Shown here: positions 6,613 through 20,445 of the stretch, piece after piece | How the letters are laid out: every line of letters begins with the position of its first letter | How positions within the stretch are numbered: position 1 is the first letter of the stretch | DNA from: an uncultured Pseudomonadota bacterium | GTDB lineage: Bacteria; Desulfobacterota; Binatia; Binatales; Binataceae | Length of the DNA stretch: 64,000 nt | Assembly: GCA_963804355.1 (NCBI GenBank) | Contig: CAWDQC010000029.1 | Location: 3,319-67,318 of the forward strand | Direction of reading: 5' to 3' | Translations under genes and position numbers: made by a program | Notes under the pieces: generated by a model | Told to the model about the DNA's origin: nothing | Database searches by the model: none | The model's input: the letters and a program-made list of their open reading frames with translations, nothing else

Positions 6613-7536
6613 GTGAAACTCGCAGCTTTGGATGTGGGGACCAACACGGTCCTGATGCTCGTGGTCGAACGCACGCCGGCGGGCGAACTGCGCACGTTGG
6701 CCGATCTTCCGCGGATCACGCGACTCGGCCGCGGCGTCGACTCTAAAGGCCGGTTCGATCCGTCCGCGCGAACCGCCACCCTCGACGCGATCGTGGAATT
6801 TGCCGACAAAGCGCGTGCTCTCGGCGCGGAGAAAATTCTCGGCGTCGCCACTGCTGCCGTGCGCGACGCCGCCGATGGGCGCGAGTTTCTCGCCGAGGTC
6901 AAGCAGCGCGCCGCGTTCGATCTCGAAGTCATTTCGGGCGACACGGAAGCGCAACTCTCATGGCTGGCCGTGAAGAACGGCTTGGAAATCGATCCCGCGC
7001 TGAAAACCCTGACGGTGGATATCGGCGGCGGCTCCACCGAACTCATCCGCGTGGAAGCCGGACGCGACCTCGAAGCCGTAAGCTTGCAACTGGGCTCGGT
7101 GCGCCTCACCGAACGCTTCGTGCATCACGACCCGCCGATCGCGCGCGAGGCGGCCGACATCCGGCTCGCGGTCGACGAAGCCTTGCGTGCCCTCGGTTGG
7201 GATTGGAAGCCCGACACCATGGTCGGAATCGCCGGGACGGTGACAACAGTGTGCGCGCTGGTGAAGAACCTCGAGCAGTATGACCCCGCGCAGGTCCACG
7301 GACACCGCTTAACCCATCAGGAAGTTTTGCAGGCGCTCTCGCGGCTTGCCGCGATCCCGCTCGAGGAGCGCAAGAAATTACCCGGCGTGGAACCCGCGCG
7401 CGCGGACGTGATCTTCGCCGGCGCCGGAATTCTCGAGCGTGTGATGGCGCATTTCGAACTCGACCACGTGATCGTGAGCGACCAGGGCGTACGCTGGGGC
7501 CTCATCTGGCGCGAGCTGGAAAAATCTGCCGACTGA
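6613..7536 (+). CDS. ppx: Ppx/GppA family exopolyphosphatase / guanosine pentaphosphate phosphohydrolase
   Basis: Intact 307-aa ORF. MKLAALDVGTNTVLMLVVE...RITRLGRGVD...LTVDIGGGSTEL... is an ASKHA-fold Ppx/GppA signature. Confidence 0.85.
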   Translation: MKLAALDVGTNTVLMLVVERTPAGELRTLADLPRITRLGRGVDSKGRFDPSARTATLDAIVEFADKARALGAEKILGVATAAVRDAADGREFLAEVKQRAAFDLEVISGDTEAQLSWLAVKNGLEIDPALKTLTVDIGGGSTELIRVEAGRDLEAVSLQLGSVRLTERFVHHDPPIAREAADIRLAVDEALRALGWDWKPDTMVGIAGTVTTVCALVKNLEQYDPAQVHGHRLTHQEVLQALSRLAAIPLEERKKLPGVEPARADVIFAGAGILERVMAHFELDHVIVSDQGVRWGLIWRELEKSAD

Positions 7537-7617
7537 CGCTCGGCGGATTACTTCGAAGCGACTCGCCGCTCGATTCTTCGCCGCGCCTCCTCGCTCAGAA
7601 ATGACCAGTATGTCTGG

Positions 7618-7834
7618 TGGGTCATCCCGCGCAAGGTTCACTAGTCATCCCGCGAAGTCGTAACAAGTCCTCCTGAGCAAACCTGTACGGTAAGTCATCC
7701 TGAGCGGGTCCTACAAATCACCCTCAGCAGAGTTCCACAAGTCATCCTGAGCGGAGCCTGGGGTGTTAGTCATCCTGAGCGGAGCCAGCGGTGTAAGTCA
7801 TCCTGAGCGGAGTCTTCGCAGCGAAGGATCCCTC
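7618..7834. repeat. Tandem array of 8 imperfect units (23-39 bp) with conserved core AGTCATCCTGAGCGGAG; a degenerate inverted copy lies just upstream
   Basis: Units start at 7621, 7643, 7666, 7693, 7717, 7740, 7768 and 7796. The last three carry the perfect core AGTCATCCTGAGCGGAG, and the final unit extends to ...GTCTTCGCAGCGAAGGATCCCTC. The inverted partial copy at 7594-7607 is CGCTCAGAAATGAC. The array lies in the ppx to PRC-barrel intergenic region. Confidence 0.75.
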
Positions 7835-8063
7835 TTTCCGTTGCCTCCATCCGCACGCATGCCTATTTCTTCACAATTCACGCCATGACATCGTTCGCAT
7901 CCGTGTAATTCCCGCCCATTTGCCCCATCGTTCCGCGCACACGACGGCCACGCGTAACTGGACTTTACGCGAATACGTAATCCGATCGTCCTCTGGGCAT
8001 ATTGATTGCTCCACCTGTTCTTGCGGTGCACACGCACTCGTAATTTATCGAAGGAGCAGAATC

Positions 8064-8498
8064 ATGCCACAGATGGACGAAAATATCGTCAAAAATGACT
8101 ACTCGTCGTCGCGTCCCTATCGTCGCGTTCTTTCGGCCAGCACCTTGGCCAAGGATTCGGTTCGCAATCGATTGAACGAAAATGTCGGTTCCATCAAGGA
8201 AATTATGCTCGACGTGCCGAGCGGACGAGTTGCCTATGCCGTGTTGTCGGTCGGCGGCTTCCTGGGCATGGGCGACCGCCTTTTCGCTATTCCTTGGGAA
8301 GCGTTGACTCTCGACGAGGATCGTGAATGCTTCATCATGGATGTCGACAAGCAGCGTATTGAGAACGCGCCCGGGTTCGACAAGTCCAATTGGCCGGATA
8401 TGGCAGATACGTCATGGTGCCAAGGAGTTCACAAATACTGGACGGGCCGGGACGACTACGGCACTGCGGAGCCGAAAGGCCCGAGCGCTCACTACTAA
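8064..8498 (+). CDS. PRC-barrel domain protein
   Basis: RBS AAGGAGCAG is followed by ATG. The translation ...IMLDVPSGRVAYAVLSVGGFLGMGDRLFAIPWEALTLDEDRECFIMDV is the PRC-barrel motif. Confidence 0.75.
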   Translation: MPQMDENIVKNDYSSSRPYRRVLSASTLAKDSVRNRLNENVGSIKEIMLDVPSGRVAYAVLSVGGFLGMGDRLFAIPWEALTLDEDRECFIMDVDKQRIENAPGFDKSNWPDMADTSWCQGVHKYWTGRDDYGTAEPKGPSAHY

Positions 8499-8619
8499 TA
8501 GCTGGAGCAATTGAGCGCGAAGCAGCTCGGCGCGCAGGGAGCACGAAACTCCGGCGCGCCGGGTCCGTACCTCTTCACTTCGAGGCCCGCGATCGGCCTC
8601 GCGGGAGTGAAAGGGATCG

Positions 8620-9540
8620 GTGAGCGCGCGCATCCCCACCCGCGTCAGTCCGATGCTGGCGACCCTCGTACCGGCGCCCTTTCATCTGCCGCGATGGGTT
8701 TACGAGGAGAAATACGACGGCATCCGCATCCTCGCGTATAAGCAAGGCAAACGGGTGAGGATGCTGACGCGAAACGACCTCGACCGCACTACTCACTTCC
8801 CCGGTATTGCAGAGGCTATCAGCCGACTCCCCAACGAAACCCTGATTCTCGACGGTGAGGCAGTAGCGTTTGACGCCCATGGCGTTTCGCGCTTTCAGCT
8901 GCTCCAACGCGGGAATCCATCTCTGCGTTATGCATTATTCGACTGCCTTTTTCGCGACGGCGTCGATCTGCGCTCCAGGCCGCTCGTAGATCGCCGACAA
9001 GAACTCGAAGAATTGGTGAGAACACCGTCGGATCTACTCTTCATTTCGCGCCGACTTGCGCCGAACGGCCTCGATGCTTACCGCATCGCCAAGCGCAAAG
9101 GCTTCGAGGGAATAGTAGCCAAGGACATCGACAGTCCTTATGAAGAACGCCGCTCGCGCAAGTGGCTGAAGGTTAAGGTCCATCAGGAGGAAGAATTTGT
9201 AATCGGTGGCTTCACGGCGCCCGCAGGTGCGCGGAAGCATCTGGGAGCGCTGCTGCTGGGGGCTTACAGTGGTGAGGACCTCAGTTTCGTCGGCAAAGTC
9301 GGCACCGGTTTCGATGCGCATACTCTGGCCGATCTCGCTGCGGCGTTCAGGCCTCTCGGCCGTAAGACGCCGCCCTTCTCCAATCCGCCACGAGATAAGG
9401 ACGTCACCTGGCTTGAACCGCGCCTGGTGGCGCAAATCGCCTTCCAGGAATGGACGGCGGACCTCAAGCTGCGCCAGCCGGTCTTTCTTGGATTGCGCGA
9501 CGATAAAGAGCCGCGCGAAATCGTCTTACCCCGGATCTGA
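8620..9540 (+). CDS. ATP-dependent DNA ligase (LigD ligase-domain-like, standalone ~300 aa)
   Basis: PMLATLV...EEKYDGIRILAY (the KxDG adenylation motif with the active-site Lys), EGIVAKDIDSPYE...RSRKWLKVK (motif V) and a C-terminal OB fold. No Ku gene is adjacent. Confidence 0.85.
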   Translation: MSARIPTRVSPMLATLVPAPFHLPRWVYEEKYDGIRILAYKQGKRVRMLTRNDLDRTTHFPGIAEAISRLPNETLILDGEAVAFDAHGVSRFQLLQRGNPSLRYALFDCLFRDGVDLRSRPLVDRRQELEELVRTPSDLLFISRRLAPNGLDAYRIAKRKGFEGIVAKDIDSPYEERRSRKWLKVKVHQEEEFVIGGFTAPAGARKHLGALLLGAYSGEDLSFVGKVGTGFDAHTLADLAAAFRPLGRKTPPFSNPPRDKDVTWLEPRLVAQIAFQEWTADLKLRQPVFLGLRDDKEPREIVLPRI

Positions 9541-9686
9541 CGCAAGAAGGGCGCGACCGGACATGCTCCGGTTGCATCGCCTGACGGCGTTCATGCGATC
9601 ATTTCTAAAAAGAAACAGGTAGTCCGAAATGCGAATCTAAAAAAGACAAGTAGTGGGAAATGCAAAGGGTATCTACGAAATGCCAA

Positions 9687-9720
9687 GTCGCGCCGCAAAC
9701 TCTTTAGTCTGCGACGCGAC
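9687..9720. terminator. GC-rich hairpin in the convergent intergenic region (ligase vs DUF4142)
   Basis: GTCGCGCCGC-(14 nt)-GCGACGCGAC gives a 9/10 stem with no U-tract. Confidence 0.4.
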
Positions 9721-9776
9721 CTGCTTATGACCAGTACTAATGCCGATGAGTCGACTTCAGTACATATTACTCGTCG

Positions 9777-10349
9777 TTAATCGGCCTTGTTATTATTCGC
9801 ATTCTGATGACTTCCGAACCGTTCGTCGTCGTGTCGAAGATTTTCGGCCATCTTCAGATGCGCTTCGAGAACTGGAATTGTCTGATCGATATATACTCGC
9901 GAATCCGGATCGTCGCCGAGCGCGGTTTTCGCCTGGCGAAACGAAGCGATCGCCTTTTCGTGATCCTTGATGTCCATATCGAGAAACGCCTTGTTGAAGT
10001 TGGCGCCCTTCAGACCGTCGAGCTGATCCTGAGCAGCCTGATTTTTCTCGTAGGATTTCAACGTAATATTCTTTTTGCTGGCTAACGCCTCGACCGCCGC
10101 CTGGTTGGCCTTGTGGTCGTCGCGCATCGTATCCGCCATCGTTGTCAGTGCCTGGTTGTCGCCCGCCTTACTCGCGAGTTCCTTTGCCATGTCTTGCTCT
10201 TCGTTGTTCATCTGATTGGCCTGGCCGAGGAGCGTCACCAGGGCTTGGGACTGTGCGAGGGCGCGAGATGCGCCGAGAAAAGACAGCAGGATTGCTGCTG
10301 AACAGGCGATCGCCACGTTTTTCAATATTGTTTCTCTCCTTCGTGTCAA
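9777..10349 (-). CDS. DUF4142 domain secreted protein
   Basis: Signal peptide ILKNVAIACSAAILLSFLGASRALAQ. ...GANFNKAFLDMDIKDHEKAIASFRQA is the DUF4142 signature. TTG start. Confidence 0.7.
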   Translation of the reverse strand: MTRRRETILKNVAIACSAAILLSFLGASRALAQSQALVTLLGQANQMNNEEQDMAKELASKAGDNQALTTMADTMRDDHKANQAAVEALASKKNITLKSYEKNQAAQDQLDGLKGANFNKAFLDMDIKDHEKAIASFRQAKTALGDDPDSRVYIDQTIPVLEAHLKMAENLRHDDERFGSHQNANNNKAD

Positions 10350-10758
10350 AGTTCACCGACTGGCGAGAATGAATCTGCAAGACAAAGGCCAAATACTAGT
10401 GGTCGAAGCTCGACGGTGATCTGCTGTAGGAAATGCCGGGCGAGCCATCGCGCCATCGTGTGTATTCTCACAAGAATGCAAGGCGCGACGGCCTCGGCAT
10501 CCAGGCGCAAACCTATTTAGTGAGTTCGAACTGAAGCACCGGTGAGGTGATCTGTAGAACGATCCGAATCGGCTCGCACCTCATGGACCCGGTAATAATT
10601 ATATTTGCGAAGTCCGGCGATGCGGACCACGCGGACAGACCCAAGGCGCCTCGCGGGCCGTTGTAGTCGAGGTCTGATTAGTCAGTTTGAACGGTCGTGC
10701 TTCATGCGTCGGCCGCAACGAGTCTGGCCGTTCGAGTCAGGTGTCGTCGAGCGGCGTC

Positions 10759-11904
10759 CTAACCTTCCATCATCGAAGCCATATCGCCGAGCGCCTCGGC
10801 AAATTCTTCCATGAATTCCTTCACCACCACGCGACTCGATTTGACGCTGTCGACCAGTCCGACGCCCTGACCAACGAAATATGTGACCAGTTCGCGCGCC
10901 TTCGGATTGCCGCGTTCGGCCGCCCGCTGCGCCGCCGCCAGAGCAGGTTCGCTGATCAATGTTTGGAACGGCATCGGCAGCGGCCCCGGACTATCGGCGC
11001 CTTCCCAGGCCTCGGTCCACGCCGACTTGAGCTGGCGCGAATACTTTCCGGTGCGGCACTTGGAACGCACCGTGTCGCGCGATCGCGCTGCGATCATCTT
11101 CTCGCGAAAAATTTCCGTGGTCTCTGATTCCGTCGTCGCGAGCCACACCGATCCGGTCCACACTCCCGCGGCACCCATCGCCATGCATGCCGCCATCTGG
11201 CGACCGGTCATGATACCGCCCGCCGCCAGCACGGGAATATTCTTGATCGGCTTGATCGCGCGCAGCACTTCCGGGATCAGCACCAGCGTCGAAACCTCGC
11301 CGCAATGCCCTCCCGCTTCCGCCCCTTCTGCAACGATAATGTCCACGCCCGCCTTGGCTTGCCGCACGGCATGCTCGGGTGCGCCGACCAGCGCGGCGGT
11401 CGCCACGCCGTGCTTGTGCGCCATCTCCATCATCGACGGCGGCGGTACGCCAAGGGCATTGGCGATCAATTTAATTGGATGGCGAAAAGAAACCTCGAGC
11501 AGCCGCAACGCCTGATCCTCCTGCAGCGACGACCGCGCGTTGGATTCGCGAAAGCGCTCGGTCTGCGGCGCCTGCTCGACGTCGATACCGTGCCTGGCGA
11601 GCAGGTTGCGCACGAAGTCCTTGTGTCCCTGCGGATCCGTTCGGCGAGCGATCGGATGGTGACGTCCTTCTCGCCCTTGATCGAGAGGTTCTCGGGAATC
11701 AGCACATCGACTCCGTAAGGGCGTCCGTCGATATGGTCGTCGATCCACTTCGAGTTCTTCTTCGAGCGCGCTCGGCGAAAAAGCCGTCGCGCCAAGCACG
11801 CCGAAGCCGCCGGCTTTGCTCACCGCCGCGATCACGTCGCGGCAATGGCTGAAGGCGATCAGCGGAAATTCGACGCCCAGCATTTCGCAGATCGGATTTT
11901 TCAT
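10759..11904 (-). CDS. Nitronate monooxygenase (2-nitropropane dioxygenase family, FMN-dependent); two compensating frameshifts in the middle
   Basis: MKNPICEMLGVEFPLIAFSHCRDVIAAVSKAGGFGVLGA...GVDIIVAEGAEAGGHCGEVSTLVLIPEVLRA...PVLAAGGIMTGRQMAACMAMGAAGVWTGSVWL. The alternate-frame ORF 11466-11795 carries the true WIDDHIDGRPYGVDVLIPENLSIKGEKDVTIRSLAERI segment. Confidence 0.8.
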   Translation of the reverse strand: MKNPICEMLGVEFPLIAFSHCRDVIAAVSKAGGFGVLGATAFSPSALEEELEVDRRPYRRTPLRSRCADSREPLDQGREGRHHPIARRTDPQGHKDFVRNLLARHGIDVEQAPQTERFRESNARSSLQEDQALRLLEVSFRHPIKLIANALGVPPPSMMEMAHKHGVATAALVGAPEHAVRQAKAGVDIIVAEGAEAGGHCGEVSTLVLIPEVLRAIKPIKNIPVLAAGGIMTGRQMAACMAMGAAGVWTGSVWLATTESETTEIFREKMIAARSRDTVRSKCRTGKYSRQLKSAWTEAWEGADSPGPLPMPFQTLISEPALAAAQRAAERGNPKARELVTYFVGQGVGLVDSVKSSRVVVKEFMEEFAEALGDMASMMEG

Positions 11905-11949
11905 CTGAATCCTCCGTGGAACCGTCGCGCGCAAAACAAAGGGACTACT

Positions 11950-12288
11950 TTATTTTTTTGTTTTTGACTTCGGCGTCTTGCGTTTGACCGCCTTGACCGC
12001 GACCGCTTTCGCGCGCGCCACCTTGCGCTGGACTTTCTTCGGTGCGACTTTTTTGGCTGCGGGTTTTTTCGCAACGACCTTGCGGGGCTTCGAGGATTTG
12101 CCCGGCTTAGAGGATTTGCGCGCGCGCTTTATGCCCGCGATCTTCTCCACCGCGACCACCGCCCTCTGCGCCGCATTCTTGATCTGTTCCGCCGTCAGCT
12201 CGATATCCTGCGCGATCGCCGCCGCGATTCCACCGCTTTCGGGTTCCGACTCTTCCGCTACGATCGATTTCTTTGAACGCTTTGCCAT
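11950..12288 (-). CDS. Histone H1-like / lysine-alanine-rich nucleoid-associated protein
   Basis: MAKRSKKSIVAEESEPESGGIAAAIAQDIELTAEQIKNAAQRAVVAVEKIAG... followed by a KKPAAKKVAPKKVQRKVARAKAVAVKAVKRKTPKSKTKK tail. The annotated 263-aa ORF is over-extended into the antisense of the HU gene. Confidence 0.65.
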   Translation of the reverse strand: MAKRSKKSIVAEESEPESGGIAAAIAQDIELTAEQIKNAAQRAVVAVEKIAGIKRARKSSKPGKSSKPRKVVAKKPAAKKVAPKKVQRKVARAKAVAVKAVKRKTPKSKTKK

Positions 12289-12475
12289 GTTCTCATAATT
12301 GCACGGTCGCCGGCGCAAGGGGACTCCAGCATGGTTCCAAGGCGAGATTCCGTGGCGAAAGATTTCCCGCCGCCCTAAGCTTCGAATGCACCCGAATGTC
12401 GGCAAAAGAGATGGAGCGGTTGCACTTTTCATCGCCGGAGATCGCGCTAAACTGCCGAGAAGGGGAGCATCGGCC

Positions 12476-20353: not shown

Positions 20354-20445
20354 GGAGAGGTGGCCGAGCCCGGTTTAAGGCGCACGCCTGGAGAGCGTGT
20401 AGACTCGAAAGGGTCTCGGGGGTTCAAATCCCCCCCTCTCCGCCA
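20354..20445 (+). tRNA. tRNA-Ser (anticodon GGA), 92 nt including CCA
   Basis: Acceptor stem GGAGAGG/CCTCTCC, D-arm GCC...GGC and anticodon stem CACGC/GCGTG with loop CTGGAGA. The long variable arm AGAC-TCGAAAGG-GTCT is typical of Ser tRNAs. T-arm GGGGG-TTCAAAT-CCCCC, discriminator G, 3' CCA. Confidence 0.9.

Follow-up and report, generated by a model that had tools for sequence, protein, structure and literature searches.

The spacer between ppx and the PRC-barrel gene in the window analysed here, a 64,000-nt stretch of the Binataceae contig CAWDQC010000029.1 to whose positions all coordinates refer, is 527 nt long and contains an array of short repeats, which raises the question of what these repeats are, how they came to lie there, and whether they serve the genes on either side. 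The array is a lineage-specific polar stutter beside a hairpin element of REP/MITE-like type; it is selfish or neutral DNA and locally ordinary. Its annotation as a gene, a CRISPR array, or a regulatory site is unwarranted, and the regularity seen at the level of the repeat family is more interesting than the array itself.

The array and its inverted unit

Two boxes define the repeat family, GTCATCCTGAGCG on the 5' side and CGAAGGATC on the 3' side, with N(0-20) between them. The array comprises eight units arranged head to tail on the forward strand (7620-7831) with periods of 23-28 nt (Table 1), as described in an earlier note on this DNA, which had also placed them correctly between these two genes. 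Each of the five upstream units (u1-u5, 7620-7739), which were also detected as direct repeats, consists of a 5' fragment of the element followed by a tail of 6-10 nt. The cores of u6 and u7 are identical to that of u8, their tails agree with one another at 8 of 11 positions, and both units keep the GCGGAGC mini-hairpin sequence with the 3' stem strand missing. Both boxes of the family pattern are exact in u8, where they enclose a 12-nt inner segment, and this unit carries the ATCCT...AGGAT stem boxes together with the inner palindrome CTTCGC-A-GCGAAG, which does lie in the last unit, as the earlier note had stated.

The 13-mer GTCATCCTGAGCG occurs in four exact copies in the 64 kb, every one within the array, and TRF reported a repeat of period 28 with 91% matches at 7739-7812. 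Eight core matches with at most two mismatches were found in the window, a count reached by none of 100 shuffles. Compared with AGTCATCCTGAGCGGAG, the 17-nt cores have 6, 6, 4, 2, 4, 0, 0, and 0 mismatches from 5' to 3' (Spearman -0.93; exact permutation p = 0.0012), a gradient that bears out the 5'-ward degeneracy previously noted. The core is perfect over 13 nt in u4 and over 17 nt in u6-u8, and the tails vary.

The inverted copy that had been described upstream of the array as degenerate is present, lying 14 nt from u1, but it is a whole unit, longer than the 14 nt originally noted. Read on the minus strand it is GTCATTTCTGAGCG-AGGAGGCGCGG-CGAAGAATC, shaped like the right arms (GATTCTTCG...CTCAGAATGAC) of complete family elements, and it is divergent from the array. 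A convergent partner arm for it was not found in the window sequence, nor was one found 3' of u8. A further core-like sequence within ppx (GTGATCGTGAGCG, 7468-7480, two mismatches) was rejected as a unit, being conserved coding sequence (VIVSD) in all relatives.

Table 1. Features at the array locus and in the block downstream of ppx
Feature	Position	Strand	Description
Ppx/GppA gene	6613-7536		5' neighbour of the array
Inverted unit	7572-7605	-	Complete family unit (GATTCTTCG...CGCTCAGAAATGAC), 14 nt upstream of u1
u1	7620-7642	+	Old decayed partial unit, 6 core mismatches
u2	7643-7665	+	Old decayed partial unit, 6 core mismatches
u3	7666-7692	+	Old decayed partial unit, 4 core mismatches
u4	7693-7715	+	Old decayed partial unit, 2 core mismatches
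u5	7716-7739	+	Old decayed partial unit, 4 core mismatches
u6	7740-7767	+	Young partial unit, 0 core mismatches; AGTCATCCTGAGCGGAG + 11-nt tail CCTGGGGTGTT
u7	7768-7795	+	Young partial unit, 0 core mismatches; AGTCATCCTGAGCGGAG + 11-nt tail CCAGCGGTGTA
u8	7796-7831	+	Sole complete unit of the array, AGTCATCCTGAGCG-GAGTCTTCGCAG-CGAAGGATCC; 0 core mismatches
Palindrome CTTCGC-A-GCGAAG	7814-7826		Inside u8; u8's version of the family's variable inner hairpin
PRC-barrel gene	8064-8498		3' neighbour of the array
Block downstream of ppx	7537-12470		Array, PRC-barrel gene, ATP-dependent DNA ligase, DUF4142, nitronate monooxygenase, Lys-rich ORF
Lys-rich small ORF	11950-12291	-	

The array shares with CRISPR arrays its direct repeats, its short intervening segments, and a single degenerate end. 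It differs from them in its period of 23-28 nt, in intervening segments of 6-11 nt that are related to one another, and in a last unit that runs into the palindrome of a dispersed family. Where CRISPR arrays have repeats of 23-55 nt and unrelated spacers of similar length, the units here decay as whole repeats. No CRISPR-like criterion detected the array, and none of the neighbouring ORFs examined was noted as a cas gene. The earlier dismissal of a CRISPR array thus holds, the tails being too short and mutually related.

A widespread family of mini-hairpin repeats

The core had been thought to resemble a dispersed family of short repeats, and it does belong to one that is widespread in environmental bacterial and phage DNA, the complete-unit pattern matching at least 120 viral contigs. 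A search for the motif beyond the locus found the family dispersed in metagenomes yet nearly absent from the rest of the window and from the loci of relatives: within the 64-kb window units occur only at the array locus, and a relaxed core search returned one match in ∼190 kb from 12 related Binataceae loci.

Among the matches listed, the inner segment is mostly NAG, giving GCGNAGC, or is a longer insert with a GNA mini-hairpin. The inner mini-hairpins of other family members (GCGNAGC, CCGAAGG, and GTGCGAAGCAC) occupy the place of the u8 palindrome, and the stem of the unit is closed by tandem G.A pairs. The heptamer d(GCGNAGC) forms an extraordinarily stable DNA mini-hairpin, with a reported Tm of 70-76 °C (PMC13037366). 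The intra-unit stem (ATCCT/AGGAT) covaries, with an exact complement in 71 of the 81 units whose 5' stem dinucleotide is other than CC (TC/GA in 61, TT/AA in 5, GC/GC in 4, and GT/AC in 1). This covariation argues that a hairpin in single-stranded DNA or RNA is a conserved feature of the family.

An inverted partner is often found 20-80 nt away from a unit. The matches listed include 85 distinct complete elements of 60-130 bp, each composed of a left unit, a centre, and an inverted unit; they are non-coding, present in many copies, bear terminal inverted repeats of ∼25-31 nt, and are flanked as T|GTCAT...ATGAC|A. No clear target-site duplication was seen at these complete elements, only the T|...|A flanks. 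The sequences between inverted units were searched for an autonomous element and contained mostly ordinary genes and one IS110-family transposase, with no partner sharing the same ends, and no transposase gene consistently linked to the elements was found. A stutter array on one side and an inverted unit on the other flank the IS110-family (DEDD) transposase gene (L161:219-1864), an arrangement in which an IS110-family element has probably inserted into the middle of a palindromic family element. On a 132-kb viral contig (L136, L139, and L140), a doublet of a partial and a complete unit sits inside a larger repeated palindromic element, which is flanked by heptamers of the GGGATCA/CTGATCC type and occurs at several loci on that contig.

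Searches for a previous description returned little. A BLAST search with a complete element gave one weak plasmid match and none in cultured phages. Rfam 15 holds no such family, the array being unmatched at the gathering threshold across the window and at E≤10 over 7450-8100, with no match in eight repeat-dense loci either. Literature searches with the motif, its reverse complement, and the derived peptides matched only unrelated PCR primers and yielded no published family name. Small dispersed repeats of cyanobacteria, reportedly described by Elhai in 2008, are a possible relative. Neither the family nor its polar stutter is present in the searchable literature, in Rfam, or in the other collections searched, and both are apparently undescribed.

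Among known systems, REPs and REPINs are repetitive extragenic palindromes mobilised by RAYT transposases (Bertels & Rainey 2011, PMC3116915). The present family resembles them in its short imperfect palindromes, in inverted doublets able to fold into a long hairpin, and in its clusters and tandems. REPs are known targets of IS110/IS621, and one family element has apparently been hit by an IS110-family insertion. They differ in other respects. REPs are species-specific and number hundreds per genome near a RAYT gene, whereas the 13-nt and 9-nt boxes of this family are nearly constant across very many unrelated environmental contigs and the family is essentially single-locus in this lineage (64-kb window and ∼190 kb of 12 relatives' loci). 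The family includes 85 distinct convergent inverted doublets among the matches listed; at this locus the inverted unit is divergent from the array and u8 has no convergent partner 3' of it. No RAYT/Y1 transposase was found among the window ORFs examined or among ORFs between inverted units, and polar arrays of 5' fragments do not figure in the description of REPINs (PMC3116915).

The complete members are likewise similar to MITEs in their length, non-coding nature, terminal inverted repeats, and many copies, differing from them in the lack of a demonstrated target-site duplication and of an autonomous element with the same ends; the window locus itself consists of one arm plus fragments rather than a two-armed element. 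Since the array is not a CRISPR, has a low copy number for a REP, and comes with no RAYT gene, target duplication, or autonomous partner, it is best described as a polar stutter array beside a widespread mini-hairpin repeat.

Polar stutter arrays and their growth

The arrangement of the window array recurs throughout the family. At least 120 metagenome contigs hold runs of three or more cores, with periods from 14 to 39 nt. Among the matches listed, 112 arrays were scorable, having their 3' end inside the contig, and in 87 of these a series of partial units, each a core plus a tail of 5-25 nt, is followed by exactly one complete 3' unit. Of the remainder, 10 close with a complete unit, 9 consist of complete units in tandem, and 6 are apparent exceptions, 5 of which proved to be complete variants. 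The same polarity was found in a viral sample of 138 units selected solely for being complete, where, among the matches listed, solo 5' fragments lie directly upstream of 7 units and directly downstream of none. Decay is heavier in the 5'-most than in the 3'-most core of 22 arrays, with the opposite pattern in 4 (p = 5e-4); this comparison treats both ends alike with regard to the way in which the arrays were found. Such polar stacking of 5' fragments ahead of a single complete unit characterises the family in general.

In 47 of 85 arrays the breakpoint between partial and complete sequence falls at nt 13-15, and in another 30 it falls at nt 16-20; both ranges lie within the 5' half of the hairpin. 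Junction microhomology in the youngest arrays is just 0-5 nt. Three simple origins for the fragments were considered and set aside. The tail is a simple copy of the 5' flank in some arrays only; most arrays have tails without a simple copy of a recognisable 5' flank, and in many cases the flank is a decayed unit in its own right. No stacked 3' remnants exist, as the nesting of new elements inside older ones would have left, and excision footprints followed by re-insertion do not fit tails that are unlike the 3' ends of the element.

Growth of an array could be followed in phage terminase genes. On a viral contig (L051, 3163-4230, minus strand), a stutter array and a complete unit lie in frame in the gene for the terminase large subunit, between the ATPase and nuclease domains. 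The linker inserts of its homologues range from 0 to ∼125 residues and consist of repeat-derived peptides, distant homologues being without an insert. Translated family units in this linker give LRMT and AQDD peptides. The terminase of a second contig (L276, 501-1853) is 94% identical at the protein level, and the two arrays differ by one unit. The extra unit, carried by L276, directly adjoins the complete unit and is composed of the complete unit's first 17 nt (GGAG variant) and the tail of the preceding partial unit. The change corresponds exactly to a tandem duplication of the preceding unit's tail together with the 5' end of the element, as would result from slippage or unequal exchange between the complete unit and the unit upstream of it. 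Growth at the junction with the complete unit accounts for the polarity as well as for the gradient. As a separate observation, this terminase linker is a hotspot for several kinds of small GC-rich in-frame repeats, its inserts varying over the stated range even among close homologues.

Head-to-tail units, a copy number that varies between close relatives, and a new unit that is a chimera of two neighbours are features shared with minisatellites and VNTRs. Growth here is polar and anchored to one intact 3' hairpin element, decay is one-sided rather than at both edges, and what repeats is a piece of a dispersed element with a tail attached, which sets these arrays apart. Rickettsia palindromic elements (RPEs), reportedly described by Ogata and colleagues in 2000, are said to be small palindromic repeats inserted in frame into protein-coding genes. 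The translated, in-frame units of the terminase linker, for which insert-free homologues exist, are similar in this respect; they differ in their unrelated sequence, in their much shorter units (25-45 nt), in their spread over phyla and metagenomes, and in their variable unit number.

Collectively, these data make it probable that the seven 5' fragments beside the single complete unit of the window array arose in place as selfish or neutral DNA, the fragments being added at the hairpin junction by slippage. The element itself is non-coding and REP/MITE-like, a variable mini-hairpin bounded by GTCATCCTGAGCG and CGAAGGATC. On reaching it, DNA synthesis would copy its first 13-20 nt and then stall at the hairpin, whereupon the nascent end could re-pair with the same sequence in the preceding unit. 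The segment made up of the preceding unit's tail and the element's 5' end would then be copied again, by replication slippage or, equivalently, unequal exchange. New fragments would join only beside the intact hairpin, and older ones would be shifted 5'-ward and decay; growth confined to the side of the intact hairpin would produce the degeneracy gradient. That the hairpin is the trigger is suggested by the positions of the breakpoints and of the growth point. A replication-slippage hotspot had been among the explanations offered in the earlier note, and the array architecture, the gradient, and the junction growth in the terminase pair fit it.

Some observations count against slippage. The predicted DNA hairpin of u8 (-6.8 kcal/mol, z = -1.4) is not better than shuffles, and the microhomology of the first event is only 0-5 nt. 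The minimum-energy fold of u8 uses an outer pairing slightly unlike the ATCCT/AGGAT family stem; energy tables deal poorly with sheared G.A pairs and GNA loops. Given that stalling is a candidate step, that the fold is unexceptional, that microhomology is short, and that tails are mostly not copies of the flank, an enzyme-driven origin remains a live, if unlikely, rival. In this scheme the fragments would be the work of a mobilising enzyme acting on single-stranded DNA, for instance a nickase or an HUH/Y1 transposase, that nicks within or next to the mini-hairpin, with nicking leading, again with low probability, to repeated abortive re-initiation or to one-ended copying at the 5' end of the element. 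Consistent with this are the clustering of breakpoints at the hairpin (nt 13-20), the very short first-event microhomology, the stem covariation expected of a recognised single-stranded hairpin, and the T|GTCAT...ATGAC|A ends with no obvious target duplication, while the asymmetric excision of REPINs provides a precedent (PMC3116915). No transposase is consistently linked to the family, however, the IS110-family gene having most likely inserted into an element, and the lack of stacked 3' remnants excludes nested insertion. Moreover, the tails within an array copy each other, and the growth event in the L276 terminase is fully explained by homology between neighbouring units.

A bolder and rather doubtful proposal in the same direction is that the family constitutes a cross-phyla miniature mobile element whose mini-hairpin, with its tandem G.A pairs and GNA loop, is the recognition or nicking site for single-stranded DNA transposition, so that the arrays would record abortive initiation. 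If this were true, the arrays would give a readout of the point and direction of cleavage, and the window array would be one such record.

Whichever agent builds them, the arrays have practical consequences. The family is extremely abundant in environmental DNA and yields spurious ORFs as well as in-frame peptide insertions such as those of the terminase linkers, in keeping with the earlier suspicion that such repeats are mistranslated into ORFs. Its short tandem arrays are hypervariable and can disrupt assemblies or be used to mark strains. In its strict polarity the stutter offers a clean natural example of one-directional repeat growth anchored by a hairpin, with a possible use in studying how stable DNA mini-hairpins disturb replication, or as a route to the mobilising enzyme.

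Relatives of the locus and the question of function

The relatives of the window Ppx are Candidatus Binataceae MAGs with at most 76% identity, and the array is absent from 12 Binataceae loci. A closer comparison is provided by a sister lineage, represented on 17 JGI contigs, whose PRC-barrel protein is 98% identical and which has the gene order GST, TrmFO/GidA-like, ppx, PRC-barrel, ligase, DUF4142, and NMO in common with the window. Its spacer between ppx and the PRC-barrel gene measures 257 nt against 527 nt here, a difference of 270 nt, and in the alignment lacks the sequence corresponding to window ∼7546-7797, which contains the inverted unit and u1-u7. The sister lineage has no array and keeps one decayed unit, TAATCCTGAGTGAAATTTGCAGAGCAA, at the position of u8, while the downstream, promoter-proximal part of the spacer (7860-8063) is mostly conserved. 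A 91% homologue has a 258-nt spacer with the array likewise absent, and PRC-barrel genes in other gene contexts have no units upstream. This absence from the sister lineage and from other PRC-barrel genes shows that the array is not a conserved regulatory feature.

Array length therefore varies between related lineages, from eight units here to one in the sister lineage, a comparison across strains having been proposed in the earlier note; the array may have expanded in this lineage, or deletion may have reduced an ancestral array in the sister lineage. The four perfect cores here, set against the decayed unit of the sister lineage, could reflect gene conversion, re-invasion, or selection acting on the core instead of neutral drift. 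A metagenome scan with the array's own 45-nt pattern gave no matches, so that no near-identical strain was found. Exact look-ups of the window Ppx and PRC-barrel proteins also gave no match, for which, in the case of Ppx, its GTG start may be the explanation. In the closest GTDB relative (Ppx 76%; L121:10915-11000), the ppx stop codon lies within the core-like sequence GTCAGCCTGAGCG, with a second core-like sequence ∼45 nt further downstream; both are possibly vestiges of earlier units at this gene end.

In another proposal the array is functional, its units being bound by a regulator or nucleoid protein that would control the stress genes for the PRC-barrel protein and the ligase, or else the termination of ppx. 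This proposal draws on the perfect cores of u4 and u6-u8 despite their differing tails, and on the position of the array in a long spacer upstream of a probable stress gene cluster. It is nonetheless improbable. The array is missing in the sister lineage despite the same genes and a conserved promoter-proximal region, and is missing in the 91% homologue and upstream of other PRC-barrel genes; similar arrays occur in unrelated contexts, for example inside a phage terminase gene. The three differences between u6 and u7 all fall in the tail, but this distribution is not significant (about 0.06 by our own estimate). The protein-binding or regulatory array envisaged at the outset is accordingly hard to maintain.

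A small structured RNA, the other functional possibility then raised, fares no better. Rfam gave no match with the threshold relaxed to E≤10, RNA folds of the entire spacer scored no better than shuffles for either strand (z = -1.4 and -0.8), and a scan found no sigma-70-like promoter. A hammerhead or K-turn reading of CUGAG...CGAAG was rejected by inspection, its core nucleotides being unfit. One could imagine that the minus strand is transcribed as an RNA sponge for a protein, presenting CAGGAUGA every 23-28 nt in the manner of the GGA motifs bound by CsrA/RsmA. Four exact and several degenerate CUCAGGAUGAC repeats on the minus strand, with a terminator-like hairpin and T-run downstream on that strand (7544-7528), would suit such a transcript, but the number of terminator-like structures is within the range of chance, the fold score is -0.8, no promoter-like site or Rfam match was found, the array is unconserved in the sister lineage, and the motif is simply the family core, found in all contexts. 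This possibility is scarcely credible. Taken together, these results point to no role of the array for either ppx or the PRC-barrel gene, and nothing suggests that it serves its neighbours. The sole Rfam match in the window is a tRNA (20354-20442, 89 nt), for which a long variable arm is suggested.

The setting of the array raises one more alternative. Synteny with five Binataceae MAGs is lost at the ppx stop and picked up again at the HU gene (12473). The intervening ∼4.9 kb (7537-12470), in which no integrase or transposase was seen, is missing in those five MAGs and present whole in the sister lineage. The break in synteny at these two points indicates that the block is lineage-specific. 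The left edge of this block might then be marked by the array as a multi-site terminus of some transposon or island, given that the gene order breaks exactly at the ppx stop and that direct repeats of 20-28 bp at an element's end are like the ends of Tn7/Mu-type elements. Such an origin is very improbable, because the right edge has no matching unit, the block carries neither integrase nor transposase, the sister lineage has the whole block and no array, and the arrays of the family are situated outside small palindromic elements rather than at the termini of units that carry genes.

Two further sequence features were observed in this block. A 31-nt tandem repeat (9604-9663, 1.9 copies, 82% matches) lies between the ligase and DUF4142 genes. 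The motif GATTGCT...CACCTGTT...GCGGTG is found 35-60 nt upstream of PRC-barrel starts in the window (∼8004-8030) and at two other loci (L272 and L275) with differing gene contexts, and may be a promoter or operator.
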